64,000 nucleotides of DNA from a virus (Duplodnaviria; Heunggongvirae; Uroviricota; Caudoviricetes): IMG/VR virus record IMGVR_UViG_3300035659_000001; one strand, given 5' to 3'. A program made the position numbers and the translations under genes. Shown here in pieces: positions 1 to 59,744 of this stretch (the stretch's first letter is position 1; each line of letters starts with the position of its first letter). The notes under the pieces are model-generated. The model did no database searches. It was not told where the DNA came from and was given only the letters and a program-made list of their open reading frames with translations.

Positions 1-607
1 ATCATTAAAAGGTAAGGCAGCTGAGTTTACAGTAACAGTACGAAAAATTGACTCTAAAACTGTTAGATCAATTGAAGAAATGGCTGCTGCTGAGAATAAG
101 TCTATTGAAGAATATAGAAAGTTTGTTGAAGATTATAAGAAAATTGATGATGAACGATATGAGGCAGATGTTTTATCTCAGTGTGTTCTTATTGCTGAGA
201 TTCAACCAATACCAGATTCAATGGTAGAATATGAATTAGCAAATGAATGGAATCAATTGTTATATAGAATGAGTATGTCTGAAGAAGAATTTTTGAAAAA
301 GAATAAGAGTGGTAAAGATGTATTTTATGCGCAAAAAAGATTGAGAGTCGAAAAAGCTCTTGAAATTAAGATGTTTTTAGATCATATTTGTGAAAAGTAT
401 AATATTACTGCGTCAGAAGAAGAAGTGCAGAAATTATTTGACGACAGATTTACAAAGCTTAATAAAACTGAAGAAGAGAAAACTGAAATTAAAAATAATC
501 TTAAGAAAAAACAAAATTATTCTGCAGGTGAAATGGCAGTTAAGCACGAAAAAGCAACGAAATTGTTAGTTAAATCAGTAAAAAATATTGACGATTATGC
601 AAGCTGA
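1..607 (+). CDS. Trigger factor-like protein, C-terminal part (5' partial, reading frame open from window start)
   Basis: Frame is open from nt 2. The sequence 'GKAAEFTVTVRKIDSKTVRSIEE...' followed by a helical, acidic and lysine-rich domain matches the end of the PPIase domain and the C-terminal arm of bacterial trigger factor. Confidence 0.5.
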   Translation, partial: SLKGKAAEFTVTVRKIDSKTVRSIEEMAAAENKSIEEYRKFVEDYKKIDDERYEADVLSQCVLIAEIQPIPDSMVEYELANEWNQLLYRMSMSEEEFLKKNKSGKDVFYAQKRLRVEKALEIKMFLDHICEKYNITASEEEVQKLFDDRFTKLNKTEEEKTEIKNNLKKKQNYSAGEMAVKHEKATKLLVKSVKNIDDYAS

Positions 608-1813: not shown

Positions 1814-3787
1814 ATGAAAATTATGAAAGTTACTGAAAAGTCAAAGAATCAAGAGATTGGTCGATTAGAAGGCGATATACGGTTGCATAGGTATTTGTAT
1901 TATAATAAAGAACCTCGAATATCTGATCAAGCTTATGATGCTTTAGTTGAACGTCTAAGGCAATTAGCACCAAATAGCGAAGTACTCAAAGAAGTTGGTG
2001 CACCGGCAGATGAACATTCTGGATGGCAAAAAGCTACGCATTCTATGATAATGGCATCGTTAGCAAATGCTATGACAATTGATGATTATAATAAATGGGT
2101 TCATACTACAAATGTCATTGGGAAAGTTTTAGTTTTAGAAGATAAACTTGATGGTTCATCAATTGAGTTGAATTATGAAAACGGTGAATTAACACAAGCA
2201 ATTACTCGTGGTGATAGCAGAATCGGTGAAGATATTACTCTCAACGTTAAAAAAATGAAATTTGTTCAATCCACTTTAAAGGAAAAAATTACCGTCAGCT
2301 TACGCGGTGAAATAATGTTGTTTAACGAAGAGTTTGAAGAAATCAATACATTAGTGGAAAAACCTTTTGCAAATCCAAGAAATGCAGCAAATGGCATAGC
2401 AAAACGATTTGATGGGAAATTTTGTGATAAGTTATGCATTGTACTGTATGATATGATTTCGCCTAATGTTACATTTTCGTATGAAACTGAAAAATTAGAT
2501 TACATGGCTAAAGCTCTTGATTTAGTAACTATTAATTATAAATTAGTTACTCCTCAAGAAGTCGTTAAAGTTCGAGAGCAATATACAAAAACTGATAGAG
2601 CAAATTTACCATATAATATTGATGGCCTTGTTATTAAAATAAACAGTATTCAACGACAAAAAGACCTTGGCCGTCATCCCAATGGTGATCCTAAAGGTCA
2701 TGTTGCTTTCAAATTTGATGCAAGAGGCGTTGCTACTACTATTTTAGATTGCATTGCTGAAGTTGGTAGGACAGGAGTAATTACACCAAATGCTGTTTTA
2801 GATCCTATTAATATTGATGGATCGATTGTAAAAGCTGCAACATTACACAATTATGATGAAATTGCTCGATTAGGTGTCGGTATTGGTGATACAGTTGTCG
2901 TAGTAAAATCGGGGGAGATAATTCCCAAAGTGATCGAAGTTATTAAACATGTAGGTAATAAGATTTTACCACCTACGCAATGTCCTGCTTGTGGAGGACC
3001 AGTTGTTAAAGATGGTGACGGTGCTCATCTTTATTGTGACAATGATAATTGTGTTGGTAAGGAATTCAGAAAATTACGTCATTTTACAGATGTTTTAAAG
3101 AAACGAATGAGTTTGACTGATATTGGTCATAGTACCGTTGAGCAATTATTTGAAAAAGGTTTTATAAAGGATCCTGCTGATTTTTATACATTAACAATGA
3201 CAAAAATTGCAAGTTTAGATAGATCGGGCGAAAAGTCTGCTAAGAAAATAGTTGATGGTTTTGAACGTTGTAAAGAAATGGACGTTGTTACTTTTTTAAT
3301 GGGACTTGCAATACCTACATTAGGTGAAACTATGGCTGAAACTATTACTGATGAATATGATTTATTTGCATTAATGGAAGAAGTTACAGAAACAGATTTG
3401 TCAAAAATATCTGGTATTGGTCTTTCTCGTGCTCATGACATTCTTGAAGGATTATCTCAACGTAAAGAGTTGATTGAAAAATTGATGCAAGTTGGTGTTA
3501 AAATTAAGAAATCTGGTGATGTGAAACTTGAGTCAACTAAATTACAAGATAAGTCATTTCAAGTAACAGGACCAATTACGAAAATAAATCCAAAAACAAA
3601 TAAATCATATAAACGCGAAGAATGGTATGATTTTGTAAAAGCTAATGGCGGAGAGATTAAACGAGTGAACAAGGAATTAATGTACCTTATAGCTAATAGG
3701 TCAAGTGGAAATAAGCTATCCAAGGCCTCTAGTATGGGGATTAAAGTAATATCTGAGGATGACTTTTGGAAAATGATTGACGATTAA
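1814..3787 (+). CDS. ligA: NAD+-dependent DNA ligase
   Basis: 'KLDGSSIELNY' KxDG adenylation motif, OB and HhH regions, a Cys4 zinc finger 'CPACGGPVV...HLYCDNDNC' and a C-terminal BRCT-like region. Length 657 aa. Confidence 0.9.
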   Translation: MKIMKVTEKSKNQEIGRLEGDIRLHRYLYYNKEPRISDQAYDALVERLRQLAPNSEVLKEVGAPADEHSGWQKATHSMIMASLANAMTIDDYNKWVHTTNVIGKVLVLEDKLDGSSIELNYENGELTQAITRGDSRIGEDITLNVKKMKFVQSTLKEKITVSLRGEIMLFNEEFEEINTLVEKPFANPRNAANGIAKRFDGKFCDKLCIVLYDMISPNVTFSYETEKLDYMAKALDLVTINYKLVTPQEVVKVREQYTKTDRANLPYNIDGLVIKINSIQRQKDLGRHPNGDPKGHVAFKFDARGVATTILDCIAEVGRTGVITPNAVLDPINIDGSIVKAATLHNYDEIARLGVGIGDTVVVVKSGEIIPKVIEVIKHVGNKILPPTQCPACGGPVVKDGDGAHLYCDNDNCVGKEFRKLRHFTDVLKKRMSLTDIGHSTVEQLFEKGFIKDPADFYTLTMTKIASLDRSGEKSAKKIVDGFERCKEMDVVTFLMGLAIPTLGETMAETITDEYDLFALMEEVTETDLSKISGIGLSRAHDILEGLSQRKELIEKLMQVGVKIKKSGDVKLESTKLQDKSFQVTGPITKINPKTNKSYKREEWYDFVKANGGEIKRVNKELMYLIANRSSGNKLSKASSMGIKVISEDDFWKMIDD

Positions 3788-4959: not shown

Positions 4960-5217
4960 ATGAGTATAATCTATGATTATCCATTATACAATAATGGGTT
5001 TTTACCGATTAAGTTACAATACATAGCTGCTGCTATTACTCAAATAGTATGTGATGCAGATGAGTTTGTTTTTAATATAGTTTTAACAGAAGGTCATACT
5101 ATACGAATATCACGATCAATGGAAACTCCTATTCCAAACAATAAAGCTGAATTTGCAGAACAAAGAACAAGATTAATTACAGCATGGAAAGAGCATGAGA
5201 ATCTTGCAAATAAATGA
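4960..5217 (+). CDS. hypothetical protein
   Basis: ORF that starts 2 nt after the previous stop. Confidence 0.3.
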   Translation: MSIIYDYPLYNNGFLPIKLQYIAAAITQIVCDADEFVFNIVLTEGHTIRISRSMETPIPNNKAEFAEQRTRLITAWKEHENLANK

Positions 5218-5578
5218 TGACACTTTAGTTGATGTCAAAAAAGTAAAAAAGTATGCTGAGCAGAATATTGTTTCAATTGATACAATAAAAGCTGCAGTTG
5301 AATGTCCCATGGAAAGTATCCCTATAGGTGATAATCCTGAACATGTTGTGTATATTCATGATGGATTTCGTGTAGTTTATTCGATTGAAGAACAGCCTAT
5401 AGGATTAATAGCTCATTTGTCTATTTCAGTAGAAGCTGTAGGTAAATATTCAAATGAGCAGGCTGTTAATGTAATTCTTAAAGAATTCGGAATGAATGAT
5501 GTATCTGAAAGTATAAACGTGTGGTTGGATGAAAGTAATCAATCAGTGAACATTTTACAAGAATTTATAAAGGATTAG
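5195..5578 (+). CDS. hypothetical protein
   Basis: ORF overlapping the previous gene's end. Typical phage gene packing. Confidence 0.3.
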   Translation: MRILQINDDTLVDVKKVKKYAEQNIVSIDTIKAAVECPMESIPIGDNPEHVVYIHDGFRVVYSIEEQPIGLIAHLSISVEAVGKYSNEQAVNVILKEFGMNDVSESINVWLDESNQSVNILQEFIKD

Positions 5579-5697
5579 TATGTTTAGTTTTTTTGAAGAT
5601 ATGATGGACGGTATTTATTTTGCTATTGATGTGTTTATAGAAACTGTCAATGACATTGTAGACAGCCTTTTCCAGTGGTGATTAATAGGAGAAAATT

Positions 5698-6267
5698 ATG
5701 AATTATCAAGAAAGACCTTGCGAGTCTCAACCAGGCGACATAATAAATAGCATAAAGAGATATGAGTGTGCCGCTATGATATGTAAAGGCAAACGAGTGT
5801 TAGACTTTTCATGCGGTTATGGCTATGGTACAAATGTTTTTCATAAAGCCGGTATTGATGTAGTAGGAGTAGAAAGAGATGCTCCAGTTATAGAAGAGGC
5901 AAGAAAGAAATTTCCAAGATGTAAATTTATGGTTGCTGAAGCGTTTGCTATTGATTTAACGCAGTTTGACATAATTGTTTCTATGGAAGTTATTGAACAT
6001 TTAGAATTTGAAGACAGAGATGCAACGTTGAAATTATTTAGTAGTAAAGTAAAAGAAATTATTATGTCAACACCAAATGGTGACATGTTTCCTTATAGAC
6101 CAAAAGAGAAAAAAGATCGAATTGGTTTTCATGTTTGTCATTATGCATATCTTGAACTGGACGATATTTTCAGAAAATTCTACAGCAATGTTGCAATTCT
6201 TGGACAAGCCTTTGACCCAAGAATTGGAAAATATACAGGTCATTTAGTATATGCTGCAAATACATAG
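5698..6267 (+). CDS. Class I SAM-dependent methyltransferase
   Basis: Motif I 'VLDFSCGYGYGT', motif II/post-I 'VVGVERD', 'IVSMEVIEHL'. RBS 'taggagaaaatt ATG'. Confidence 0.6.
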   Translation: MNYQERPCESQPGDIINSIKRYECAAMICKGKRVLDFSCGYGYGTNVFHKAGIDVVGVERDAPVIEEARKKFPRCKFMVAEAFAIDLTQFDIIVSMEVIEHLEFEDRDATLKLFSSKVKEIIMSTPNGDMFPYRPKEKKDRIGFHVCHYAYLELDDIFRKFYSNVAILGQAFDPRIGKYTGHLVYAANT

Positions 6268-6277
6268 GAGATTGCCT

Positions 6278-6421
6278 ATGAATGAACGTTCAATTAAAGT
6301 TTTGAAAAGTCAAGGATTCTTTTTAATTAAAGAATTGGAGAATGGAATGTATAGAGCTCAGTATGATAAAACTGTTTATTACAATTTGTATGTTGTTGGT
6401 AATTTAGTGAGACAAGCCTAA
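6278..6421 (+). CDS. hypothetical small protein (47 aa)
   Basis: ATG preceded by 'taggagattgcct'. Fills the gap between neighbours exactly and ends 2 nt before the next ATG. Confidence 0.3.
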   Translation: MNERSIKVLKSQGFFLIKELENGMYRAQYDKTVYYNLYVVGNLVRQA

Positions 6422-6423
6422 TT

Positions 6424-7590
6424 ATGAAAGCAATTTATGCATTTTCGGGTGATCCAATAACATTTGGTCACATTGATATTATAGAAAGAGCTGCTAAGGT
6501 TTTTACAAAAGTGTTAGTTTGTATTGGCAGTAATCCAGATAAAAAGTATATGTTTACACTTGAACAAAGATTGCAAATGGCCCAAGATGCATTGTCGTCA
6601 ATTAAAAATGTTGACGTCAAATCTTTTTCAGGATTGCTTGTTGACTTTGCTTTTGAGCAAAACATTTCAGTTATAATAAAAGGTGTTAGAAATACTACAG
6701 ATTTTGAATATGAAAATACTCTTCATGCTGTAGGCGAAAGTCAAAAATTAGGTATTGAAACATTTATATTGTTTGCAAAACCACAATTGGCTCATGTTAG
6801 CTCTAGTACAGTTAAGTCAATTCAAAAAGAACATGGCTTTATTCATGAATATGTTACATTGAATGTTAAAGAAGCTTTAGAGAAGCAGATGTCAAAACAG
6901 CTTATTATTGGTGTGACTGGTGAAATTGCTGCTGGAAAATCGTATGTAACTGATGCATTAGTTAGTTTGCTGGATAAGTCAAAAATTGAAGCTCATAATA
7001 TTGATTTAGATATTATTGCACATGAAATATTAGGTAGTTTAAAATTGCCTCAATATGTTGAAGTTAGACACAAAATATCTGCTAGATTTGGTGAAACCAT
7101 TAAGGATCTTTATGATTCTATTAATAGAAAAAAATTAGGAGCAATAGTGTTTAAGGATTCAAATGCTCTTAAAGATTTAAATGACATAATGAGAGATTCA
7201 ATACTTGTAAGAATTAAAAGAGAATTAAATAACAAAGAAGGCATTATCTTTTTGAATGCTGCTTTACTTGTAGAAGCAGGTATGACAGATTTATGTAATA
7301 ATAATGTGATTTTAGTTAAGTGTGACAAAGTTGTTCAGAGATCACGTCTTTACAAACGAGGCCTTTCAACTGTTCAATTAAATAAACGATTAAAATCTCA
7401 ATATTCTTATGATGAAAAGAAAGCAGTTCTTGCTGAGAGAATAAGAGAACATAACAAATATACAGGTAATATATTTATTGTAGATACTTCAAAAAATGAC
7501 TCTGACATTATAAATACTGCTAAATTATTATCAAATTTGCAAAGCGGTGATTCTAAAGGATTGTGGAAAAACAAATTTTTGACTTTATAA
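6424..7590 (+). CDS. Bifunctional phosphopantetheine adenylyltransferase / dephospho-CoA kinase (CoaD-CoaE fusion)
   Basis: N-terminus 'MKAIYAFSGDPITFGHIDIIERA' is the CoaD (H/T)xGH nucleotidyltransferase signature. The C-terminal half has the DPCK P-loop 'IGVTGEIAAGKSY'. Confidence 0.8.
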   Translation: MKAIYAFSGDPITFGHIDIIERAAKVFTKVLVCIGSNPDKKYMFTLEQRLQMAQDALSSIKNVDVKSFSGLLVDFAFEQNISVIIKGVRNTTDFEYENTLHAVGESQKLGIETFILFAKPQLAHVSSSTVKSIQKEHGFIHEYVTLNVKEALEKQMSKQLIIGVTGEIAAGKSYVTDALVSLLDKSKIEAHNIDLDIIAHEILGSLKLPQYVEVRHKISARFGETIKDLYDSINRKKLGAIVFKDSNALKDLNDIMRDSILVRIKRELNNKEGIIFLNAALLVEAGMTDLCNNNVILVKCDKVVQRSRLYKRGLSTVQLNKRLKSQYSYDEKKAVLAERIREHNKYTGNIFIVDTSKNDSDIINTAKLLSNLQSGDSKGLWKNKFLTL

Positions 7591-7661
7591 CCCTCTATAA
7601 CTCAGTGGTAGAGTGGCGTTCTCTAAAAATGCTGTCATCAGTTCAAATCTGATTAGAGGGA
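7591..7661 (+). tRNA. tRNA with anticodon CUA (amber-suppressor type; amino-acid identity undetermined)
   Basis: Manual cloverleaf: acceptor CCCTCTA/TAGAGGG, D arm ACTC-AGTGGTA-GAGT, anticodon stem GCGTT/AATGC with loop CTCTAAA (U33, anticodon CTA, A37), T arm ATCAG-TTCAAAT-CTGAT, discriminator A. No encoded CCA. Confidence 0.7.
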
Positions 7662-7674
7662 TTGATAAATTATA

Positions 7675-7700
7675 AGAGGGATTAAAATCCCTCTTTTTAT
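7675..7700. terminator. Rho-independent terminator (bidirectional hairpin)
   Basis: AGAGGGAT-taaa-ATCCCTCT followed by TTTTTAT. Lies between the + strand tRNA and the converging - strand gene. Confidence 0.7.
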
Positions 7701-8080
7701 GCAAAATTTAAGTGCTTAAAAATCTCGCCAGTATCAATACATGCAATAGCTGTAACTTGATTATTCAAATCAGGTTCTTTAAATGACACATATATTTTTT
7801 TACGAGCAGCAAGTTTTGCTGCCCATAAATTTAAAACTGATTCATTTCTTATACCAAGAAATATAAGATATGAATTATTCCATTTTTTATATGCTTCTAA
7901 ATCACCTTTTAATGAATACTCGACAATAGCATGAGCACCTTGCACGCACCGATACGTTTGATCTAGATCTTTACGCACCAATACATACATTCTCGGTTCT
8001 CGAATATTCATTAATCCAACTCCTAATAAGTTCTTGATCAGGTTCGTTACCTTCTGCACATTTTGACTCAATTTGCTCAT
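7697..8080 (-). CDS. Peptidyl-tRNA hydrolase, PTH2-like (tentative)
   Basis: 'MYVLVRKDL...QGAHAI' and a C-terminal 'IYVSFKEPDLNNQVTAIA' resemble the archaeal/eukaryotic Pth2 fold. The true start is probably an internal Met (MNIREPRM or MYVLV), because the upstream gene overlaps. Confidence 0.4.
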   Translation of the reverse strand: MSKLSQNVQKVTNLIKNLLGVGLMNIREPRMYVLVRKDLDQTYRCVQGAHAIVEYSLKGDLEAYKKWNNSYLIFLGIRNESVLNLWAAKLAARKKIYVSFKEPDLNNQVTAIACIDTGEIFKHLNFA

Positions 8081-8273
8081 ATTTAGTTCCTCGCATTAAA
8101 CAATATGCAATATGTTTATGTCTGTATTGCCATCGTTCAAGTTTTAATTTGAATTGTAATTCACCAGCATAAAGACAACTTCTTTGAGTTTCTTTGAGAT
8201 TCTTTTTATTAATTTTAATTTGAGAGGCTAATTGCTTAAGTTCGTTTTTGAAAGAAAGAATATTTGAATTCAT
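7971..8273 (-). CDS. hypothetical protein
   Basis: ORF with upstream 'taggagtgtagtt ATG'. Confidence 0.35.
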   Translation of the reverse strand: MNSNILSFKNELKQLASQIKINKKNLKETQRSCLYAGELQFKLKLERWQYRHKHIAYCLMRGTKYEQIESKCAEGNEPDQELIRSWINEYSRTENVCIGA

Positions 8274-8425
8274 AACTACACTCCTATTTATTTGTTTGTT
8301 GATTAATTAAACGTAATTTGACATGATCAACGAGCGTAGTTAAAATTAGGGAGGTTTGAATATCTACAGCATTTTTTAATATCTCCTATTATAATAGCTA
8401 ATATATAACATTTTAATCAACGATG

Positions 8426-8647
8426 TTACATGTTTTCAATAAAATAATTGCATTGACAATATTTACAGCCCACGACAGCCATCTTTTCATAAGTGTCAAA
8501 GTGACGATAATATGGATGACCACATTTACATAGTCGATCATCACCATAATTTGGATTGTAATGTAATTCTTTAACTATTGAAGTAATTTCAATGTATGGC
8601 TTATTATCATCTTTTAATGGTTTAATATCTGTTATTCTCATTGTCAT
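8426..8647 (-). CDS. small Cys/His-rich (zinc-binding) protein
   Basis: 'CKCGHPYYRH...GCKYCQC'. ATGA start/stop overlap with the upstream gene. Confidence 0.35.
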   Translation of the reverse strand: MTMRITDIKPLKDDNKPYIEITSIVKELHYNPNYGDDRLCKCGHPYYRHFDTYEKMAVVGCKYCQCNYFIENM

Positions 8648-9909
8648 TGTTTAAATACCTCGTCAAATGTTTTTTCTTCAATAGTAGAATTAAAATGAGT
8701 CTTAAACATATTTTTACTGCGCATGTAATCGTGTATTGTTATTTTTTGATGTTCAGTAATTTTATCATAATCCCAGAAAAATCTATTCATTGACACTTTG
8801 ACAAAACCTTTTTTATCAAGAAGAATTTGAGCATCTTTTCCTTCATGTTTGAAATTAAATTTTTCACAAAGTTCTTCAGAAAAATTAATATGATTCAAGT
8901 CAGAACAACCATAAAAATTTCCATCGCGATCAATATAACCGGATCTCCATTCTGTTTTTCTAATATCTTCTGGCTCAATATTTTTGCGATCACTTTCTTT
9001 AAGTAATGCATTAACATATTGTTCTACATTTATAGCAGGCCCAATATTAGCCATAGCTCTGGCAATAATAGCATCAGATTGATTAGTTCTTGCATTGACA
9101 AAACTATCATTTTCATTTCCTAAAAGAGTAGTGAATTCCGGTTGTTTTGACTCATAACTTTCATGAACTATTTCATTGTCGCTAAAAACAAACAAATGCT
9201 CATATTTTTTATTAAAATAGTCTCTTATTGGATTTAAATATGAAAATACTTCAGTGTAAACTCCGTAATTATGAAATTGACTCTTATAATTTTTTTTGTT
9301 TTTAAAAGTAGGGCCTTCAGATAATTCTAAAAAATCAGTAGGCAAATATTCTAAAGTTGGATCTAAAAAGAATTGTCTTGAAATATTTCTAATATCTGCC
9401 CAATATTCATTTATTTTTACTCTAATACTATTTTCAATTTTATTTTCTTCAACTGCTGAAAGCCAATTTAAAGTGTAAAATTTATTCTCTTTAAAAGTAG
9501 AAGGATATTTTCGAATTAATCTAAAAGAACGAAGATGAAACTCTGAGATATATAATCGAACTTTCTTAAGTAACATTACATCATGCCAACTATCAAGTAA
9601 CGGAAAATGCTTATTGTCTTTGCCTGATTTATTAGGATCCCAACATTTTCTGTTATCATCCACAATATCAAACTCATTAGTACCAACAAATTTTTTCTTG
9701 CCAGATACAATATCAATGAAATGTGTGTTTATGTCATCAATAGAACTGCATTGCGGAAACGTGTCTGTCCACATTTTGACGGCTTTTAATTCGCTACCTT
9801 CAGCCCAAAGATGTCGAAGTAACCATGTCATCGCTTTTCCTTCAATAGTAAAATAACATATTTTCATTGTCATAGTTTGTTTTTCTTTCAATCGTAAAAA
9901 TTGCGCCAC
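8644..9909 (-). CDS. hypothetical protein (421 aa)
   Basis: Long ORF with normal composition and no motif recognised by eye. Confidence 0.45.
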   Translation of the reverse strand: MAQFLRLKEKQTMTMKICYFTIEGKAMTWLLRHLWAEGSELKAVKMWTDTFPQCSSIDDINTHFIDIVSGKKKFVGTNEFDIVDDNRKCWDPNKSGKDNKHFPLLDSWHDVMLLKKVRLYISEFHLRSFRLIRKYPSTFKENKFYTLNWLSAVEENKIENSIRVKINEYWADIRNISRQFFLDPTLEYLPTDFLELSEGPTFKNKKNYKSQFHNYGVYTEVFSYLNPIRDYFNKKYEHLFVFSDNEIVHESYESKQPEFTTLLGNENDSFVNARTNQSDAIIARAMANIGPAINVEQYVNALLKESDRKNIEPEDIRKTEWRSGYIDRDGNFYGCSDLNHINFSEELCEKFNFKHEGKDAQILLDKKGFVKVSMNRFFWDYDKITEHQKITIHDYMRSKNMFKTHFNSTIEEKTFDEVFKQ

Positions 9910-13013: not shown

Positions 13014-13886
13014 ATGAAAATTGAATTTTATGGTGTTCGTGGAAGCTATCCAGTACCAGGTAATGATACTATCAAATATGGTGGCAACACAACGTGTGTT
13101 TCAATTTCAAAAGAAGTTAATGGTAAAATAATTAGACTTATTTTTGATAGTGGTACTGGCATCATTCGTCTTGGAAAAGACATTATTAAAAATTATTTTG
13201 AAGGCAAAGAAACTTTATGTGTTAATTTGTTTTTCACGCATTTACATCCTGATCATTGTCAAGGATTTCCATTTTTTGCTGTCAATTTTTTTAAAAATAG
13301 TTGTTTAAAGCTTTATGGAATGCAAACTTTGCATAAACATATTGGCGATATTTTATCCGAACAAATGTATCCGCCAAATTTTCCTATAGAATATCGAGAT
13401 TTAAAAAGTGATAGAGAAAGCATTGTTTTAGTTGATGGTCAAACAATAACAATAAGTGATTTTACTGTTACTTGTATGCAAGCGTTTGCACCGTCACATC
13501 CTCAGCAAGGTGCAATGTATTATAAAGTACGTGATAATTATGCTAATACAGAAGTTGTTTGTGTTTGGGACAATGAGTCAAAAATTGGTGGTGATCAAGC
13601 AGTTATTAGGTTTGCAAAAGATTGCAATGTTATGATTCATGACACACATTATACTTCTGAAGAATATGTAAGTAATAAAATAATTGTTCAAGGTTTTGGT
13701 CATTCAACATACGACATGGCTATGAATAATGCTATTCAAGCGCATATAAAGCAAAAGTTGATTTGTTTACATTTTAATCCGTTACATGATGATTATAAAT
13801 TAGATTTAATTCAGAAACAAATAAATGATAATTGTAGACCTTTTGAGACAGTTTTGGCCAAAGAAGGATTGATTTTAATAATATAA
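13014..13886 (+). CDS. Metallo-beta-lactamase-fold hydrolase
   Basis: 'HTHLHPDHCQG' HxHxDH motif and further H/D ligands ('GHSTYD'). RBS 'aaaggaatcttctttt ATG'. Confidence 0.6.
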   Translation: MKIEFYGVRGSYPVPGNDTIKYGGNTTCVSISKEVNGKIIRLIFDSGTGIIRLGKDIIKNYFEGKETLCVNLFFTHLHPDHCQGFPFFAVNFFKNSCLKLYGMQTLHKHIGDILSEQMYPPNFPIEYRDLKSDRESIVLVDGQTITISDFTVTCMQAFAPSHPQQGAMYYKVRDNYANTEVVCVWDNESKIGGDQAVIRFAKDCNVMIHDTHYTSEEYVSNKIIVQGFGHSTYDMAMNNAIQAHIKQKLICLHFNPLHDDYKLDLIQKQINDNCRPFETVLAKEGLILII

Positions 13887-13895
13887 GAGGAATGT

Positions 13896-14102
13896 ATGTT
13901 TTTAATATTATTGGAAATTACTGTAGCGTGTATAGTGTTAATATTTTTTGTTACGCAATTAATTATACCTCTTTTTAGAGGAACTGTTTTCTTTCCTATG
14001 TTTAGAGAAGAGAGTGATTTAGAAACTAAATTACGAAAAACAAAGCAAAAGAAATTAGAGAAAAACTTGCAAGATGAAATTAAAAAAAATGAAAGCATAT
14101 AA
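13896..14102 (+). CDS. small membrane protein
   Basis: Hydrophobic N-terminal helix and a Lys-rich tail. RBS 'agaggaatgt ATG'. Confidence 0.3.
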   Translation: MFLILLEITVACIVLIFFVTQLIIPLFRGTVFFPMFREESDLETKLRKTKQKKLEKNLQDEIKKNESI

Positions 14103-15067
14103 TGTCAAAAAAACTATTAACAAATTTAAAGGAGAAGAGTATGTCACCGAAAACGATGGGTTTAACTGCTTTAGTTTCTATTGCATGTTTATTTTTTCTA
14201 ATTTCATGTTTTAAATTGTTTGAAAATAATAATGCAAATCAAATTATGTGTGTTCAAAGTCCTATACTTGGTAAATTAACATGGTACATTACTGCCGGCA
14301 CTAAATGGCAAGGATTTGGAAAAATTACAAAATATGATAAACGTTCTATTTATAATTTTTCATTACCAGTTAGATTTAATGATGCAGGACACGCCACTAT
14401 GACTGGATCAGTTCAATTTGATATGTCATTATCTAAAGAACATCTTGATAAAGTACAATCTAAGTTTGGTACTGAAGAAGCTATAAAAACTCAATTGTTA
14501 CAAACTGTAGTTAATAAGTGTTTGTATATGACTGGCCCAATGATGAGTAGTAAAGAATCGTATGCTGAAAAGAGAAGCTATCTAATTAATTATGTAGAAG
14601 ATCAAATATCGAATGGCATTTTTAGGACTGCTATAAAAGATACTACAATTAAAGACCCTATTACAGGAGTAGATAAGATGGCTTCTTTAGTTGAAATTGT
14701 CACTGTAAACAAAATTCCTCAGCGTCAGGAAGAAGCTGTATTAAAAGAATTTGGAATTAGAGCATTTAACTTTTCTATTGAGAAATTAGATTATGACGAA
14801 ACTGTTGAGAAACAAATACAGCAACAACAACAAATGACAATGGCAGTACAGACGTCAATAGCTGATGCAAAGAGAGCAGAGCAAGCAGCTATTACTGCAG
14901 AAGCTAATGGAAAAGCAAATGCTGCTACTGCAAAATGGGAACAAGAAACTAATAAAGCTCGTGCTGTTACTATAGCTGAAAAAGATAGAGATAGTTGTAA
15001 ATTAGTTATGGAAGCTGCAGCATTTAGGAAGCAAGCAAGTATATATAACTTTTGGATGATTTTATAG
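14102..15067 (+). CDS. SPFH/band-7 (prohibitin/stomatin/HflC-like) membrane protein
   Basis: N-terminal transmembrane segment, a central SPFH-like region and a C-terminal Ala/Glu-rich coiled coil 'ADAKRAEQAAITAEANGKANAATAKWEQE'. Confidence 0.55.
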   Translation: MSKKLLTNLKEKSMSPKTMGLTALVSIACLFFLISCFKLFENNNANQIMCVQSPILGKLTWYITAGTKWQGFGKITKYDKRSIYNFSLPVRFNDAGHATMTGSVQFDMSLSKEHLDKVQSKFGTEEAIKTQLLQTVVNKCLYMTGPMMSSKESYAEKRSYLINYVEDQISNGIFRTAIKDTTIKDPITGVDKMASLVEIVTVNKIPQRQEEAVLKEFGIRAFNFSIEKLDYDETVEKQIQQQQQMTMAVQTSIADAKRAEQAAITAEANGKANAATAKWEQETNKARAVTIAEKDRDSCKLVMEAAAFRKQASIYNFWMIL

Positions 15068-15439
15068 TAACCAATAGAAATTGCGTCGTAATCAAAACGT
15101 AATAATAGGAGTAAGATTTGTAAAATAAAGACTTTATTGCACAGATTAACTAAAAAGAAGTTAAAAAATGCAAAAAAAAACATCACAAAAACTTAACGTA
15201 CAAAAACTTAAAGTAAAACTAATTAGTAACGAACTTGGGTGGTTTGTGTCGATTGAACAATCTAAGTCTTTTTCATATTATTGGTACTCTTTTTTAATAT
15301 GGTTAATGAGAACATTTATGAGATATGAAATTAAAATTGCCAAAATATGTAGAAACATTCATAACTTTCTTTACTGTGATCATAATGATATACGATAAAT
15401 TAGTACTACAATTGTAGGTCGTTTTGAATAAGGAAAAAT

Positions 15440-15709
15440 ATGATATGTTTACGTTGTGGTTATTGCTGCAAAAAATATTTTGTAGCAATAGTTAATGATC
15501 CAAGCAAAGGTATAACAGATAAAAATATAATTATACAAACTGGCGATAATCGATGTAAACATTTAGTAGGTACTGAAGTAGGTAAATATAGTTGCGCCAT
15601 ACATGACTATACTTGGTATAAAGAAACACCGTGTTATCAATTTGATCAAGTAGGTAAAATAGATGCTCCATGTAGAATAGGTGTTTATCAATTAAGTAAG
15701 GTTAACTAA
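15440..15709 (+). CDS. YkgJ/UPF0153-family CxxCxxCC Fe/Zn-chelating domain protein
   Basis: 'CLRCGYCCKKY' plus downstream Cys residues ('NRCKHL','CAIHD','PCYQF'). Confidence 0.5.
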   Translation: MICLRCGYCCKKYFVAIVNDPSKGITDKNIIIQTGDNRCKHLVGTEVGKYSCAIHDYTWYKETPCYQFDQVGKIDAPCRIGVYQLSKVN

Positions 15710-15754
15710 AAATTTTGTGATTATCTTGCAAAAGGATAGTAATAGTTAGTCTAT

Positions 15755-15899
15755 GGTTACTCGATTAATGCATTATTACAGATGGTCTGATCGTGCCGGT
15801 AATGGCAATTAATTGCTACTCGTAACTCGGCGATTAAACACCATACTATTACAAATTCGATAAGTGCGGGTGCACACGTGCGTGTATTAATTGGTAACC
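15755..15899. ncRNA. Candidate structured RNA (GC-rich island closed by a long-range stem)
   Basis: A 310-nt ORF-free gap. GGTTACTCGATTAATGC ... GTATTAATTGGTAACC closes about 140 nt. Internal palindromes GCAATTAATTGC and GTGCACACGTGCG. GC content well above the flanks. Confidence 0.3.
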
Positions 15900-16022
15900 T
15901 GGACTTTTTAAAAACTTTTGGGGTATAGATCAACAGTTATGACTATGAAATATATAGTTAATAATAATATAAATTATAGCAGTCGCATTTTATTTATACC
16001 ATAGCTTTAAAAAGGAAAGAGT

Positions 16023-17000
16023 ATGAAAGCAAATTTAGCAAAACAAGATAAAAAGCGCTTTGTAATTATGTTAATTTGTCTCATTTTATTTTCATTGTGC
16101 TTTGCGCAAAAAGATTCAACAAGTGATAGTTCACACGTGCTATTACCAAAGTCAATCGGTCCAACAACTCTATTTCAAAAATCATCAAGATTTAGAATGC
16201 AAGAATATAATTATTTCCTTTTTGGTTTAAGTAAAAAAAGTCCTATAATGGAATACAAAAATCAAGTTAAAATTTTATTTAGCATGAAATTTAATTTTTT
16301 TACTTTTACTTATGATTCATTATTAGTACTTGTTAAATTCAAAAAGATAACTAAAAATTTTAATTTATATAGAAGTTTAAACGTTGATATCGGCTATAGA
16401 CAAAAAAGCTTCTGGAATATTTATGATGATTCTACTTCTCGTCCAATGTATGACAATAATTACTCACCCTCTTTCTATCTTTCATGGATAACTTACATCA
16501 AAAAAATATCATTACCAATTTCAATATTAGCAGGCTATGTTCACGAATCAAACGGTGGAGCTACTTTTTTAAACCCATATTGTCCGGCAATATCAAGAAG
16601 TTGGGATAGAATTTATTTAGGCGCAAGCGCAGGAAATTTACAAACAAATCTTGTAACATTTCAATTAGATATGTGGGTACCTTTTGGTCTTGAAGAAAAT
16701 ACTGATATATATAAACATTATGGAATTGGTGAAATAACTTTGTACTATCAGCCATTTTTCAAATATCAACATTCATTATCAAATTTTGGTCTATCATTTA
16801 CGTGGAAAATAGCTAGTGAAAATTTCAACAATGCTGAACTTAGCTTATTTTTCAGTCCCTTTCAATTTGCTAAAAACAAAATTCTACGATTATTCACGCC
16901 CACATTTTATTCTCAACTATATTTAGGAAGCGGTGAGAATTTAATTGATTATCAAACTAGACATATTTCTTTTAGAATCGGTTTAGCTACGTTATTTTAA
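16023..17000 (+). CDS. pldA: Outer-membrane phospholipase A (OMPLA/PldA family) with signal peptide
   Basis: Signal peptide 'FVIMLICLILFSLCFA', a catalytic 'HESNGG...SRSWDRIYLG' block matching PldA 'HDSNG...SRSWNRLY', and a beta-barrel C-terminus ending in F. Confidence 0.75.
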   Translation: MKANLAKQDKKRFVIMLICLILFSLCFAQKDSTSDSSHVLLPKSIGPTTLFQKSSRFRMQEYNYFLFGLSKKSPIMEYKNQVKILFSMKFNFFTFTYDSLLVLVKFKKITKNFNLYRSLNVDIGYRQKSFWNIYDDSTSRPMYDNNYSPSFYLSWITYIKKISLPISILAGYVHESNGGATFLNPYCPAISRSWDRIYLGASAGNLQTNLVTFQLDMWVPFGLEENTDIYKHYGIGEITLYYQPFFKYQHSLSNFGLSFTWKIASENFNNAELSLFFSPFQFAKNKILRLFTPTFYSQLYLGSGENLIDYQTRHISFRIGLATLF

Positions 17001-17348: not shown

Positions 17349-18281
17349 ATGAAAATTTCAAATATTCATTCATTAATGACAAGAATACAAACTGTATTTA
17401 TTGATAATTTTGGTTTTACACCATTACGTCAAAGAAATCAAGACATACTCACAGAAGCTATTGAGATATCAAGGTTTTCATCGACTGCTAATCTCAAAGA
17501 AGAACATGGTGATTTATTGTGCAGCCTTTTAATGAGTTTCAAAGAAAACGGTTGGGACCCTGTTGAATGTGTTGAAGCAACATTAAATAAAATTGAAAGA
17601 AGAAAAAGTCAATATCAAGCATACGGTCGAAAATTGTCAATAGCTATTTTAGGTGGTGCGTTTGACCCAATTACTGTGGGCCATATTGCAGTCGCTGAAT
17701 TTCTATTAAATGCTAGCTCACAATTCGACGAAGTCTGGATAACACCCTGTCGTAAGCATTTATTTAATAAAAAATTAGCAGATGCTGAGTATAGATTAGA
17801 ATTATGCAGATTAGCAACAAAGCATGATAGACGTATAAAAGTTTGGGATTATGAAATTAAACATAAACTTGGCGGTGAAACTTACAATCTTGTTAAACGA
17901 TTATTAGCAGATAAAGAATATTATGATAAATATAGTTTTTCAATTGTAATAGGCATGGATAATGCAAACACTTTCAATCAATGGATGAATTTTGAACATC
18001 TTGAACGATTAATACCATTTGTTGTTGTTACTAGAAGTGGTATAGAGATAAAGCATGAAAGTAATTGGTATTTAAAGTCACCGCATAAGTTTCTTGTGCC
18101 AGAGAAACCATTGCCTGAAGTTTCATCAACAATTATTAAAGCTGATTTATGCATATATTATAATATTTTTAAATCAGCGGGTGCTAGTTTAGGTAAAGAA
18201 AATCCATTAATAAATCGATTGAAAAATAATTTGAATCCTGAAGTTTTTGCGTCAATTATAAAAAATGAGGCATATAAGTGA
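17349..18281 (+). CDS. Nicotinamide/nicotinate mononucleotide adenylyltransferase-like enzyme (NadD/NMNAT family)
   Basis: 'ILGGAFDPITVGHIAVAE' (cytidylyltransferase GxFxPxHxGH), 'GGETYNLVKRL', 'IVIGMDNANTF'. A ~100-aa N-terminal extension of unknown function. Confidence 0.65.
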   Translation: MKISNIHSLMTRIQTVFIDNFGFTPLRQRNQDILTEAIEISRFSSTANLKEEHGDLLCSLLMSFKENGWDPVECVEATLNKIERRKSQYQAYGRKLSIAILGGAFDPITVGHIAVAEFLLNASSQFDEVWITPCRKHLFNKKLADAEYRLELCRLATKHDRRIKVWDYEIKHKLGGETYNLVKRLLADKEYYDKYSFSIVIGMDNANTFNQWMNFEHLERLIPFVVVTRSGIEIKHESNWYLKSPHKFLVPEKPLPEVSSTIIKADLCIYYNIFKSAGASLGKENPLINRLKNNLNPEVFASIIKNEAYK

Positions 18282-19148: not shown

Positions 19149-19224
19149 AGAAAATTTGCTCAATTGGTAGAGCGAAAGATTTAGGATCTTTACGTTGTTG
19201 GTTCAAATCCGACATTTTCATCCA
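19149..19224 (+). tRNA. tRNA with anticodon UAG (Leu by the standard code), class-I (short variable loop) structure, encoded CCA
   Basis: Acceptor AGAAAAT/ATTTTCA (A1·A72 mismatch), D arm GCTC-AATTGGTA-GAGC, anticodon arm AAAGA-TTTAGGA-TCTTT, variable loop ACGTT, T arm GTTGG-TTCAAAT-CCGAC, discriminator T, then CCA. Confidence 0.55.
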
Positions 19225-19458
19225 AACGTTTTATTCAATTTCGCCCTTCTTTTAATAAAAATTCTGTTGATACATGAGGTTAAACTCATGGTTTTAAAGG
19301 GTGCTGGTGAAAAGTCATGATTCCTCCTCGCCCTTTATTTTAAAGGTATAAAAATTATGAAAATGACAACGAACTTCACTTTTAATTGTAGCAGTTGCTT
19401 TAATAGTAGCAACTCAGTGAGGTTCATTTTCTAATTATTCCATTATAGAACAACTAGA

Positions 19459-19496
19459 AAAAAGGGCCTCACCTAAAAAATGAGGCCCTTTTTTTA
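19459..19496. terminator. Strong bidirectional rho-independent terminator
   Basis: AAAAAGGGCCTCA-cctaaaaaa-TGAGGCCCTTTTTTT. Confidence 0.75.
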
Positions 19497-20021
19497 TTGA
19501 GAAAAACTATGAAAATGTATATTTTAAGGTATTTGTTTGATATGAATATTAAACAATCTAAAAACTTTATTTTAAAGAAATCCCATACCTCAATTTGGAA
19601 TTTTTTACTTGTAATTTCTAATTTAATGTTTTTATTAAAAACAACATTATCACTAAATTCTTCCAATGACTTAGGGATAACAACAATAAATTCATTTAAA
19701 TTTAAATTACAAGAAAACTATGTACTAAACGCATTTTTAATTTTACATATTTAAGATTCATAAAGTGAAGATTGTAATTTTTTAAAACTTTGAAATTGTA
19801 TAAATGAATATGAGTTATGAATTAAAATTAAGTTTTGGTATGATGTGCAGGAAACAAAACTATTTGAGTTCTTTACAAGGATATGAGATTTTGTCGTGTT
19901 CAGAAATATTAAAACGTTATACTATTGTAAAACACGAAAATGATTATGATTTGGTAGACAATTTGGATTTGTTAGTTGAGTTTTTATATAAGAATATATT
20001 TTGAAAATTAGTGTAGTCGCC

Positions 20022-20094
20022 GCCGCCTTAGCTGAGATGGATTAGCGCAAGCCTGAAGAGCTTGAGAGCACAGTTCGATACTGTGAGACGGCAT
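20022..20094 (+). tRNA. tRNA-Phe (GAA)
   Basis: Acceptor GCCGCCT/AGACGGC (one C·A mismatch), D arm GCTG-AGATGGAT-TAGC, anticodon arm CAAGC-CTGAAGA-GCTTG, T arm CACAG-TTCGATA-CTGTG, discriminator A. Confidence 0.7.
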
Positions 20095-20104
20095 TTGAAA
20101 TCAT

Positions 20105-20179
20105 AGATAGGTACGCAAATTGGCACGCGGCAGGATTGTTACTCCTGTGATTTTGGGGGTTCGACTCCCTCCCTATCTG
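20105..20179 (+). tRNA. tRNA-Asn (GUU)
   Basis: Acceptor AGATAGG/CCTATCT, anticodon arm CAGGA-TTGTTAC-TCCTG, T arm GGGGG-TTCGACT-CCCTC, discriminator G. Only 11 nt after tRNA-Phe. Confidence 0.7.
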
Positions 20180-20340
20180 TTATTTTAATTATGGAGAAGT
20201 ATAGGCAATGGATAATAATGCTTTTATAAATTTTCTAATGGAAAGTAGTCGGATATTGGTTTGCCGAAGCTATCTGCTAAATAGTTGTTCAATAAAATGA
20301 ACTGAAAGTTCAATTCTTTCACTTTCCGTTAGGAGATTTT

Positions 20341-21483: not shown

Positions 21484-21510
21484 ACGTCGGTTCAAATCCG
21501 ATCACCGTCT
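21438..21510 (+). tRNA. tRNA-Cys (GCA)
   Basis: Acceptor GACGGTG/CACCGTC, D arm GCA(G)-AGTTGGTAC-TGC, anticodon arm ACGGT-CTGCAAA-ACCGT, T arm GTCGG-TTCAAAT-CCGAT, discriminator T. Confidence 0.7.
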
Positions 21511-21694
21511 CTTTTTAAATCAATTCTACGATAAATCACATGATTATAATAATAAAGGAGGATATTTGACATTATTATAAACTTTTCAAGGAGGTTTTTA
21601 TAAGATCTATGTGATTAGTTTATTGTTATCTTGTCAGTTTACTGGCTAGATATCGTTCTAAAACGAAAATTAACAATTAACGAAGGGATTAAAA

Positions 21695-24710: not shown

Positions 24711-25358
24711 TTAGAACGTGGCGCTGCACCGGCGTCTAATTTCATCAATTAACCATTTTCTAGCATTAGTCTGCTGCACAAGTTTATGATTCATGTTGAT
24801 TTTTTCAATAAATTCTTTGTATGATATTTTTTCAAATGTATAAATAGCTGATTCAAGTGAAACATTGTATATCTTACTCAAACTATTTTTGTAGACTTCA
24901 TAATAAGCATTGCCTCTTAAATATGCTTTCTCATTTTGTTTTCCTCTATGCTCTACATCATGAAAGTGACTTTTATTATTAATAAATCTACCATCATATC
25001 CCAATAAATATATTTCTTTAAATTGTAATGCAATACCCACTGATAAGGCAAACAAACCCACTAAATAAGGACTATACATGCCATCTTTAAATCCATTAGT
25101 ATTATATTGTTTTGACGTTTTTAATGTAATGAAATCATCAGGAACTGACAAAACTTTTTTTGTTATTTTCAATGCTTTATTATTTAGTATTTGTTGTTTA
25201 TTGTTTTGAGAAAAATCTTTATCGACCCAAACAATAGCTGTCGGCTCATAAAAATGACATACAAAATTTAATCCAAACGTTATGTGATTATTTAATGTAT
25301 GCAAATCAAAACTATCTATGCTAGAACCACCACCAATTATTATTAGCTTTTCATTCAT
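24711..25358 (-). CDS. GT42-like (CstII/Cst-I sialyltransferase-like) glycosyltransferase
   Basis: The motif order matches Campylobacter CstII. 'KLIIIGGGSSI' corresponds to IIAGNGPSL, 'TFGLNFVCHFYE' to VFRCNQFYFE, 'YLVGLFALSVGIALQFKEIYLLGYDGRF' to GVYMCAVAIALGYKEIYLSGIDFY, and 'HFHDVEH' to the catalytic-His region. Confidence 0.55.
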   Translation of the reverse strand: MNEKLIIIGGGSSIDSFDLHTLNNHITFGLNFVCHFYEPTAIVWVDKDFSQNNKQQILNNKALKITKKVLSVPDDFITLKTSKQYNTNGFKDGMYSPYLVGLFALSVGIALQFKEIYLLGYDGRFINNKSHFHDVEHRGKQNEKAYLRGNAYYEVYKNSLSKIYNVSLESAIYTFEKISYKEFIEKINMNHKLVQQTNARKWLIDEIRRRCSATF

Positions 25359-59289: not shown

Positions 59290-59524
59290 TCCGTGTCTTA
59301 CGTGTCATGGTAGTAATTGCTGTGTTGATCCTATTGAAGTATTTCCGCTTGATTATATGCCATATAAATTAGCTAGAGATGGCAAAATGATTGTTAATGA
59401 TAAAAAGCAATGTATTGCACTTGTAAATGGTAAATGCTCAATTTATGAAGACAGACCAATTGTGTGTAGAAAATATAAATGTGAAAAATTCTTCAAAGGA
59501 ACAAATAATGGATGTATCACTTGA
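59264..59524 (+). CDS. YkgJ/UPF0153-family CxxCxxCC protein (second paralog)
   Basis: '[10 protein letters not shown]', '[21 protein letters not shown]'. The 3' end overlaps the ACP start region. Confidence 0.45.
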
Positions 59525-59744
59525 AAAAAGAATAAAAGAAATTATTTCAGATAAATTATCTGTCAATGTAGATAAAATTGTTCCTCAAGCAAACATTGTA
59601 GATGATTTGGGTGCTGATTCATTAGATGAAGTTGAATTATTGATGGCTTTTGAAGATGAATTTGATATTGAAATACCTGACGAAGATGCTATGAAATTTA
59701 AAACAGTCAAAGATGTTTTATCTTATATAGATTTAAAAGTATGA
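59508..59744 (+). CDS. Acyl carrier protein
   Basis: '[44 protein letters not shown]' is the canonical ACP helix II with the DSL phosphopantetheine-attachment Ser. The in-frame start is taken at MDVSLEK, giving 78 aa; the ORF track extends further upstream. Confidence 0.75.

Follow-up and report, generated by a model that had tools for sequence, protein, structure and literature searches.

We analysed a stretch of 64,000 nucleotides (one strand, 5' to 3') from the IMG/VR virus record IMGVR_UViG_3300035659_000001, which is classified within the Caudoviricetes and is referred to here as the window. It has a GC content of about 30% and its source contig comprises 261,940 bp. The window harbors a single open reading frame (ORF) that is predicted to encode the last two enzymes of coenzyme A (CoA) synthesis in one polypeptide, phosphopantetheine adenylyltransferase (PPAT, CoaD) followed by dephospho-CoA kinase (DPCK, CoaE). 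The gene and its parts are located as follows:

6424..7590, plus strand: coaD-coaE fusion ORF for a putative bifunctional PPAT/DPCK, 388 aa, ATG start and TAA stop
6424..6894, plus strand: CoaD (PPAT) domain, residues 1-157, delimited by TIGR01510, alignment with E. coli PPAT, invariant columns and Foldseek
6898..7458, plus strand: CoaE (DPCK) domain, residues 159-345, delimited by TIGR00152, PF01121, alignments with DPCK structures and invariant columns
7519..7590, plus strand: lineage-specific C-terminal tail, residues ~366-388, delimited by homologue coverage and by the predicted local distance difference test score (pLDDT)

In a preliminary description of this DNA, the motifs SGDPITFGH (residues 8-16, nucleotides 6445-6471) and GVTGEIAAGKS (residues 163-173, nucleotides 6910-6942) had been taken to mark a single 388-aa protein for the last two steps of CoA synthesis. 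This proposal held up, as both halves scored above the NCBIfam equivalog cut-offs. The CoaD equivalog TIGR01510 matched residues 3-155 with 151.5 bits (cut-off 103.3), and the CoaE equivalog TIGR00152 matched residues 161-341 with 92.4 bits (cut-off 65.55). By these cut-offs, the two halves are members of the CoaD and CoaE families. Pfam assigned CTP_transf_like to residues 10-131 (3.3e-18) and CoaE (PF01121) to residues 160-335 (1.2e-23; 84.2 bits, cut-off 27). In a sequence search of the PDB, residues 1-156 matched about 35 bacterial PPATs (1e-30 to 1e-20, 35-39% identity), and residues 159-335 matched DPCKs with E values down to about 4e-15. The DPCK half was aligned to the structures 2grj, 2if2, 4i1u and 6n39 and to the DPCK domain of mouse COASY (2f6r).

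The CoaD half aligned with the PPAT of E. coli without gaps at an offset of +2. H16, K40, R89 and S127 of the fusion fall on positions 18, 42, 91 and 129 of the E. coli enzyme, which, from the structural literature on PPAT, we take to be catalytic and substrate-binding residues. Likewise, K40, R89, D93/Y96/E97 and S126-S128 match K42, R91, D95/Y98/E99 and S128-S130, presumably the residues that bind substrate and phosphate. The nucleotidyltransferase motif T13-F-G-H16 is intact, and in a family alignment of 32 members H16, K40, R89, D93, Y96, E97, S126 and S127 were invariant. The Walker A motif of the CoaE half, G166-E-I-A-A-G171-K172-S173, aligns to the P-loops of 2grj, 2if2 and 4i1u; T165, G166 and K172 were invariant in the same alignment, while G171 and S173 were kept in at least 90% of its members. 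The segment D194-L-D196 aligns with the 'DaD/DrD' segment of DPCK structures, and D196 is invariant among the 32 members; the aspartate of this D-x-D segment after strand 2 is presumably the proposed catalytic base. Hence, the histidine of the HxGH motif (H16) and the P-loop lysine (K172), to both of which the preliminary description had drawn attention, are intact, aligned and invariant.

An AlphaFold (AF2) model of the fusion (pLDDT 86, predicted template modelling score 0.82) displayed two folded domains without a linker. In this model the protein begins directly with the CoaD fold, and the last CoaD helix (146-157) leads directly into the first CoaE strand (159-166). A Foldseek comparison with the PDB gave target-normalised template modelling (TM) scores of 0.84-0.93 for the CoaD half (root-mean-square deviation 1.5-2.2 A over ~155 residues) and no solved chain spanning both halves of the fusion. 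Residues 377-388 are predicted to be disordered (pLDDT <50), and the C-terminal tail lies mostly beyond the end of the homologues (query coverage 91-96%).

An identical 388-aa protein is encoded on seven contigs, two of them from Logan runs (SRR11719878 and SRR11714508), and copies with 94% and 89% identity also have 388 aa. Hundreds of homologues are collinear with it across the CoaD/CoaE junction. In a comparison of the window with the 89% relative (L009), the ratio of nonsynonymous to synonymous substitution rates (dN/dS) was 0.13 for the whole protein (dS ~0.44), with values of 0.04 in its CoaD half and 0.20 in its CoaE half; both domains are under purifying selection. The gene order in L009 is collinear with that of the window and comprises trigger factor, a REC-like protein, a Cas4-like nuclease, LigA, a methyltransferase, the fusion, PolX and a metallo-beta-lactamase protein. 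The features that flank the fusion gene in the window are:

5698..6267, plus strand: class I S-adenosylmethionine-dependent methyltransferase, conserved upstream neighbour of the fusion, 85% identical in L009
7591..7661, plus strand: tRNA with anticodon CUA (amber suppressor type), labelled 'Pyl' by ARAGORN; Rfam RF00005, 60.1 bits
7674..7695, unstranded: terminator-like hairpin with a 9-bp stem, between convergent plus- and minus-strand transcription units

The CUA tRNA starts at the base directly behind the TAA of the fusion and occupies the same place in L009 (11169-11241). TAG remains the stop codon of 10 of 64 ORFs in the window, the others ending in TAA (40) or TGA (14). Since TAG still serves as a stop in the window, the tRNA may serve recoded, perhaps late, genes elsewhere in the 262-kb genome. 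With standard stop usage, a coding density of ~92% under code 11 and a TAA at its end, the call of the fusion ORF is independent of any alternative genetic code, and the abutting suppressor tRNA does not undermine it; a false ORF created by such a code was ruled out on the same grounds. A promoter scan returned sigma-70-like matches no more often than expected by chance.

A word-indexed protein search yielded 849 matches at E<=1e-5. The best 120 of these were inspected; all carry both Pfam domains, most have a length of 371-390 aa, and, besides the protein itself and its 94% and 89% relatives, they share 52-62% identity with the fusion at 87-100% coverage. In an exhaustive search of 1.84 billion cluster representatives (50% identity clusters), 310 clusters matched at E<=1e-30; of the best 150 representatives, nearly all align over a single stretch of approximately residues 2-360. 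Members of the family span DPANN archaea, bacteria of the candidate phyla radiation (CPR), Fibrobacterota, Bacteroidota and Aminicenantes. A search of the GTDB species representatives recovered full-length fusions from Nanoarchaeia, Woesearchaeota, Paceibacterota, Aminicenantes and Bacteroidota as well as from the cultured Tenacibaculum sp. M341, and one cluster is labelled by NCBI as Fibrobacter, Fibrobacterota and Chitinispirillaceae. Gene content identifies several carriers as cellular: a 1.36-Mb archaeal contig also bears HisRS, HisG and TrmB, an NCBI metagenome-assembled genome of Woesearchaeota also encodes an archaeal CDP-archaeol synthase, one bacterial contig harbors PNPase-S15-RibF and a type III PanK, and another a protein with a type IX secretion system tail.

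Based on its sequence, the protein of the window belongs to this prokaryotic CoaD-CoaE fusion family, in which one polypeptide carries CoaD and then CoaE in collinear arrangement. It has the same domains in the same order, the linker-less junction, the length (371-390 aa) and the invariant catalytic residues. Unlike the cellular copies, it resides in a phage-like genome, has no HD-phosphohydrolase partner of the kind that many of them have behind or fused to CoaD-CoaE, ends in a partly disordered tail of ~20 residues and is followed by a suppressor tRNA. The family is large and clearly a housekeeping one in cells. The earlier view of this architecture as unusual in bacteria or phages therefore did not stand, given ~310 clusters, a cellular housekeeping family and six IMG/VR viral contigs with the fusion. 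Since archaea and bacteria with small genomes commonly have the fusion and further large phages carry it too, the gene can be regarded as a rather ordinary case of metabolic gene capture. The literature searched contained no description of a prokaryotic CoaD-CoaE fusion.

In most bacteria, coaD and coaE are two separate, unlinked genes, whereas the window encodes a single polypeptide. Its N-terminal half is a full-length homologue of stand-alone CoaD (E. coli PPAT, PDB 1b6t/6cck; TM ~0.9), and its C-terminal half is a full-length homologue of stand-alone CoaE (DPCK; PDB 2grj, 2if2 and 1jjv). The likeness to eukaryotic COASY noted in the preliminary description applies to the domain order but not to the PPAT half. 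COASY carries out the same two reactions in the same N-to-C order, and the DPCK domains are homologous (mouse 2f6r, 2.8e-6). COASY itself bears a PPAT domain of the archaeal/eukaryotic type, preceded by a regulatory or targeting region at its N-terminus. The PPAT half of the window, in contrast, is a bacterial CoaD equivalog and thus not a COASY-type N-domain, and the COASY structure 2f6r aligns to residues 159-329 only, that is, to the kinase half. Because the N-terminal half is of the bacterial type and 2f6r matches the kinase half alone, the likeness is convergent, and the domain matches identify the window's protein as an independent, convergent fusion and not as a member of the COASY family.

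A further PPAT fusion is found in archaea, where the partner is the GTP-dependent DPCK arCOG04076 (Shimosaka et al. 2019, PMC6650551). This kinase has no significant sequence similarity to CoaE and is absent from Nanoarchaeota and some other DPANN, and some CoaE homologues, such as TK1334 and TK2192, are inactive (PMC6650551). In the archaeal fusion, PPAT is likewise joined to the next enzyme of the pathway, but the kinase of the window is a classical CoaE instead. The bacterial-type fusion occurs in the same kinds of DPANN genomes that were reported to be without arCOG04076. Many DPANN archaea, Woesearchaeota and Nanoarchaeia among them, have the bacterial-type CoaD-CoaE fusion (L004, L005, L010-L012 and L017).

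Six IMG/VR viral contigs of 85-354 kb carry the full-length fusion at 35-52% identity. Their neighbourhoods are phage-like, with a T4-type RNA ligase, homing endonucleases and nicotinamide phosphoribosyltransferase (NAMPT); at one locus (L092), NAMPT (phrog_448, 2.8e-158) and an NMNAT-like gene (13585-14700 and 14776-16197) lie within 4 kb of the fusion. No common neighbours of the window's fusion and these six were found within ±10 kb, and the six are separate lineages or separate insertions relative to the window. In the tree they occupy at least two places in addition to the window clade. Based on the lack of common neighbours and on these tree positions, at least three viral lineages have the fusion. 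Other large phages likewise encode the terminal steps of CoA synthesis, but as stand-alone coaD or as separate coaD and coaE ORFs, the fused form being that of the window, L009 and the six IMG/VR contigs. The 735-kb uncultured megaphage LR756501 has two ORFs, coaD of 149 aa and coaE of 205 aa, with an overlap of 4 nt. The annotations of Microcystis phage MaAM05 and Myxococcus phage Mx1 include a coaD that stands alone, and the Campylobacter phages A11a and A18a gave unannotated tblastn matches to the CoaD half. In snow viromes, phage coaD/coaE have been reported as abundant auxiliary metabolic genes (PMC11097641). A megablast search of window positions 5000-9000 against GenBank phages gave no match, and neither did an exact 44-mer from the fusion gene in IMG/VR.

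In a neighbour-joining tree with 200 bootstraps, the window clade (P0001-P0003) sits on a long branch within a subclade in which those members that can be identified are bacterial. The sister of the window clade was placed inside this putatively bacterial subclade in 78% of the 200 replicates; the subclade was delimited from the first tree, and the independent taxonomic evidence for it comes from three members only (P0005, P0009 and P0014). The immediate sister, P0045, resides on a 7.9-kb virus-like or mobile genetic element-like contig (L105). Identity to the nearest unlabelled matches is ~61%, compared to ~57% to DPANN-labelled copies. Most likely, as far as the sequences indicate, the gene was captured by the phage lineage from the cellular fusion family. 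A particular bacterial donor lineage was considered and is not claimed, since few members have taxonomic evidence, the subclade was drawn from the first tree, the sister is located on a contig resembling a mobile genetic element and the gap in identity is small. On contig L105, the gene for a UvrD-like helicase is accompanied by the fusion, by a 214-aa ORF behind and overlapping it that is probably the HD partner described below, and by a run of small orphans on the same strand. It also holds a PTH2 peptidyl-tRNA hydrolase and a weak STIV_B116-like match, and may be another virus or mobile element bearing the module.

The window itself very probably stems from a huge phage. Its replication and repair genes encode an NAD-dependent ligase (1814-3787), a PolX-PHP polymerase, RecA, a DEAD/DEAH-box helicase, DnaG primase, SbcC and a Cas4-like nuclease. 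DnaE (DNA polymerase III alpha) is split into two parts (37926-41012 and 42853-44697, both minus strand) that are ~1.8 kb apart with three small to medium ORFs between them; the C-terminal part has an intein-like insertion (Intein_splicing, residues 349-554), and the split arrangement is kept in the IMG/VR relatives L102 and L103. The window also encodes a dUTPase/MazG-like protein, a homing endonuclease, six tRNAs and many small ORFs without family matches, and PHROGs matches identified a phage-type single-stranded DNA-binding protein (SSB), ThyX, an exonuclease and an RNA ligase. The sequence is of the same style over the next 10 kb past the right end of the window, where it encodes an ATP-dependent ligase, a sigma-like protein, SpoVG, a patatin and orphan ORFs; two of these orphans, of 628 and 275 aa, had no PHROG match. 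Beyond RecA, L103 continues with a RuvC-like resolvase, a homing endonuclease, a transposase, ribonucleotide reductase and dUTPase. Two uncultivated viral genomes of IMG/VR are collinear with the window over 33.8-48.3 kb at 58-81% amino-acid identity. A Shine-Dalgarno-like core precedes 37% of the genes compared to a background of 2.4%, which is uninformative for the host.

We consider it likely that the fusion is a captured bacterial-type PPAT/DPCK that makes CoA and acts as an auxiliary metabolic gene of a huge phage. The CoaD domain would adenylylate 4'-phosphopantetheine with ATP to dephospho-CoA, and the attached CoaE domain would phosphorylate the 3'-OH with a second ATP to yield CoA. 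Among window ORFs of at least 240 aa, the family-library scans detected neither PanK nor CoaBC. 4'-Phosphopantetheine must therefore be host-made or recycled, and would be drawn from the upstream pathway of the host or from turnover of acyl carrier protein (ACP) and CoA. In E. coli, according to Jackowski and Rock, CoaD is reportedly a secondary control point inhibited by CoA, and the cells are said to leak 4'-phosphopantetheine. The phage enzyme would capture this leaked pool and convert it to CoA independently of the CoA-regulated CoaD step of the host. Thereby, the pool of CoA and acyl-CoA would be kept up during infection, beside an NAD-branch adenylyltransferase 10 kb away. The latter, a NadD/NMNAT-like protein (17349..18281, plus strand), has an N-terminal extension of ~95 aa and scored 98 bits with TIGR00482, just below the cut-off of 112. 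NAD and CoA end-step enzymes appear to travel together in large phages, and with the NAD-dependent ligase of the window they share the upkeep of adenine-containing cofactors as a theme. CoA routes that use only PPAT and DPCK have been discussed for reduced genomes (PMC8721197).

The enzymatic assignment of the fusion is strong, although we infer it, along with the catalysis itself, the origin of the substrate and the gain for the phage. Several points weigh against this explanation. The 'H-P' segment of DPCK structures reads IMRDSIL in the window, so that the histidine is replaced, and Pro259, which most family members retain, is replaced as well; loss of these residues is unlikely to be fatal to the kinase. 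No capsid, portal or terminase was found in the window, in the 10 kb to its right or in the L103 stretch. With no virion gene within reach, phage status is drawn from gene content and from the IMG/VR classification of the relatives. The scans against family libraries covered ~50 of the ~93 window ORFs; as these included all ORFs of at least 240 aa, a missed PanK or CoaBC of normal size is unlikely. Finally, the benefit to the phage is conjecture.

A more specific use of the product had been suggested by the preliminary description, in which the fusion was connected to an ACP with a DSL motif and to a GNAT acetyltransferase of the same window. Both genes are real:

59508..59744, plus strand: acyl carrier protein, 78 aa, ATG at 59508 inside ORF 59427..59744, GADSLD motif, TIGR00517
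60579..61193, plus strand: GNAT-domain protein, 204 aa, fold at residues 88-185, Acetyltransf_10/1/7 (2e-6 to 4e-5)

The ACP is of the canonical acpP type, with 91.4 bits for TIGR00517 against an equivalog cut-off of 70.45. According to this explanation, a dedicated pathway of the virus would direct a supply of CoA as 4'-phosphopantetheine donor for its ACP, and of acetyl-CoA for the GNAT protein, into a phage-specific acylation, lipid or glycan process. The formation of holo-ACP consumes CoA, so a link between the fusion and any holo-ACP is possible, and the window has glycosyltransferases, a radical-SAM/GT1 fusion and a phospholipase A1. However, the ACP and GNAT genes lie 52 kb from the fusion in another transcription block, and neither linking enzymes nor co-occurrence were observed. 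Neither a phosphopantetheinyl transferase (PPTase) nor an acyl-ACP enzyme was detected beside the ACP gene, where the ORFs are without a PPTase, Fab or acyltransferase signature. Two AcpS-sized ORFs at this site, 59741-60091 and 60069-60428, were considered as PPTase candidates and rejected, as neither had a Pfam match and the former also had no NCBIfam match. The conserved neighbours of the fusion in L009 are the methyltransferase and the tRNA, not ACP genes. The confirmed phages with CoaD/CoaE (LR756501, the Campylobacter phages, MaAM05 and Mx1) gave no ACP match, and the IMG/VR fusion loci gave 0 matches to the window ACP within ±10 kb at E<=1e-5; the few ACP matches in the phage collection mostly resemble contaminating bacterial contigs. 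Thus, a link between fusion, ACP, GNAT and glycans is unsupported, and we regard this explanation as unlikely.

A different functional context is offered by a protein of ~200 aa that is linked to the fusion family, an HD-superfamily phosphohydrolase without a Pfam match. H41, H45, H73-D74, D132 and D134 are invariant, as is H118 in an alignment of eight members. The HD gene overlaps the stop codon of the fusion in an archaeal (L004, 9146-9772) and a bacterial locus (L008, 11131-11778), and in L010-L012 tblastn located the same module shortly behind the fusion. It lies directly upstream of the fusion at the IMG/VR phage loci L092 (9393-9986), L093 (9217-9810) and L095 (9163-9756). About one sixth of the best 150 cluster representatives have a length of 570-620 aa, and in the examined proteins of this size (P0142, P0144, P0149, P0188, P0095, P0087, P0113 and L017) the HD domain is fused to the C-terminus. 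Altogether, the module is present at 9 of ~24 fusion loci examined, or 10 if the 214-aa ORF of L105 is indeed this module. No copy was found in the window (best tblastn E=0.01). An AF2 model of the HD protein had a pLDDT of 95.7, and its predicted fold class is clear; the best Foldseek neighbours were weak (PDE5 and YpgQ-like, E>=4e-3), and the best PDB profile match was the uncharacterised HD protein BH2835 (7.5e-4). Because of the tight linkage to CoaD-CoaE, which includes gene fusion, the HD protein gains a testable functional context and is a candidate component of CoA salvage.

These data can be joined into a broader scheme, in which the fusion would be the core of a hitherto unrecognised mobile CoA-salvage module of HD, PPAT and DPCK, common to DPANN archaea without the archaeal DPCK, to CPR and FCB bacteria and to several lineages of huge phages. 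Release of 4'-phosphopantetheine from a carrier or from degraded cofactor would fall to the HD enzyme, phages would deploy HD-PPAT-DPCK beside NAD salvage and so rebuild pools that collapsed by infection or immunity, and the phage of the window would be a variant that shed the HD gene and coupled the fusion to a suppressor tRNA. Taken with all of these roles, the scheme is quite unlikely to be correct.

It is very unlikely that the window is not viral at all and that the fusion is a housekeeping gene of a small cellular genome (CPR/DPANN-like) or of a giant plasmid-like element. Such an origin would fit the lack of capsid, portal and terminase, the cellular nature of the closest fusion homologues and cell-like genes such as those for a trigger-factor C-terminal domain, a NusG-like and sigma-like proteins and a CCA-adding enzyme. 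However, ~74 kb were devoid of ribosomal proteins, rRNA and core metabolic genes, and about half of the ORFs scanned against family libraries were unmatched. The homing endonucleases, the intein-split DnaE, the SSB, exonuclease, RNA ligase and ThyX PHROGs and the suppressor tRNA, together with collinear relatives catalogued in IMG/VR, further argue for the huge phage.

Two readings propose other purposes for the enzyme in such a phage. Phages possess pathways for the reconstitution of NAD+, and by analogy the fusion might restore a CoA pool depleted by host immunity or infection stress. This would agree with the fusion of L092 lying within 4 kb of NAMPT and an NMNAT-like gene and with the NMNAT-like gene of the window at 17349..18281. 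As the literature searched contained no CoA-depleting defence system (work on retron Eco2 was unrelated) and closeness to NAD salvage equally suits plain metabolic boosting, such a counter-defence function appears highly improbable. Alternatively, the PPAT domain might place 4'-phosphopantetheine on 5'-pppA RNA and so create CoA-type caps rather than free CoA. The PPAT of E. coli caps pppA-RNA with 4'-phosphopantetheine in vitro, with in vivo support (PMC10761072), and the window is rich in genes for RNA handling (CCA-adding enzyme, RNA ligase, tRNAs). Yet ATP strongly inhibits the capping activity of the E. coli enzyme (PMC10761072). In addition, the DPCK domain, which is under selection (dN/dS 0.20), would find nothing to act on in an RNA-linked adenosine, the 3'-OH of which is taken up by the phosphodiester chain, and the same fusion is a housekeeping enzyme in many cells, which renders RNA capping extremely improbable as the main function. 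The concern, raised in the preliminary description, that two neighbouring ORFs were joined by a sequencing or assembly error can be dismissed: one indel could fuse a pair such as the overlapping genes of the 735-kb megaphage, but the identical protein in independent assemblies, the equally long 94% and 89% relatives, the alignment of more than 150 cluster representatives in one stretch over the junction and the run of the CoaD helix into the CoaE strand in the model argue against a frameshift or assembly artefact.

Several other genes of the window and its relatives were recorded. An unusually 'cellular' set of gene-expression factors comprises a NusG-like protein, two sigma-like proteins, the CCA-adding enzyme, SpoVG and trigger factor (window 80-607, 52009-52545, 52687-53430 and 57991-59289; L100 13446-14387 and 19270-19554; L009 4285-5574). 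Trigger factor is of full length in L009 and is represented in the window by an ORF for the C-terminal domain only, at the left edge. In a 1090-aa protein (25351-28623, minus strand), a radical-SAM domain (residues 245-398, SPASM/MoaA-like) is followed by a domain of the GT1 glycosyltransferases (705-837), an unusual combination. A phospholipase A1 homologue is encoded at 16023-17000 (plus strand; PF02253, 1.8e-23). We take PF02253 to represent OMPLA, a phospholipase of the outer membrane; if so, the gene would point to a diderm host. A patatin-like phospholipase gene lies just past the right end of the window (L100 21080-21988). Genes for tRNA-Leu, -Phe, -Asn, -Ser and -Cys are clustered at 19149-21511, and the last of these (21438-21511, plus strand) overlaps the 3' end of a 380-aa ORF (20341-21483, plus strand) at the end of the cluster. 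Both a C2H2 zinc finger and a DUF559/MTES_1575 endonuclease domain are present in this ORF, which may represent a homing endonuclease that inserted beside tRNA genes. Between a methyltransferase gene and that for the CCA-adding enzyme lie two plus-strand ORFs without Pfam match, 56765-57118 (117 aa) and 57189-57962 (257 aa); the latter also has no PHROG match and is called at the corresponding position in the assemblies L100 and L101.

With COASY, the archaeal PPAT-arCOG04076 enzymes and the bacterial-type family described here, fusion of PPAT to DPCK arose at least three times. Some members of the last carry the JGI label 'pantetheine-phosphate adenylyltransferase/dephospho-CoA kinase', and members in NCBI are usually labelled 'pantetheine-phosphate adenylyltransferase' only. 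As the NCBI name covers the first activity alone, pathway reconstructions for DPANN and CPR may wrongly score the last step of CoA synthesis as missing. For the phages, the result is a modest one, which adds a fused and apparently functional PPAT/DPCK to the cofactor genes carried by huge phages and suggests that the supply of adenine-containing cofactors is a recurrent need in long infections by large phages.

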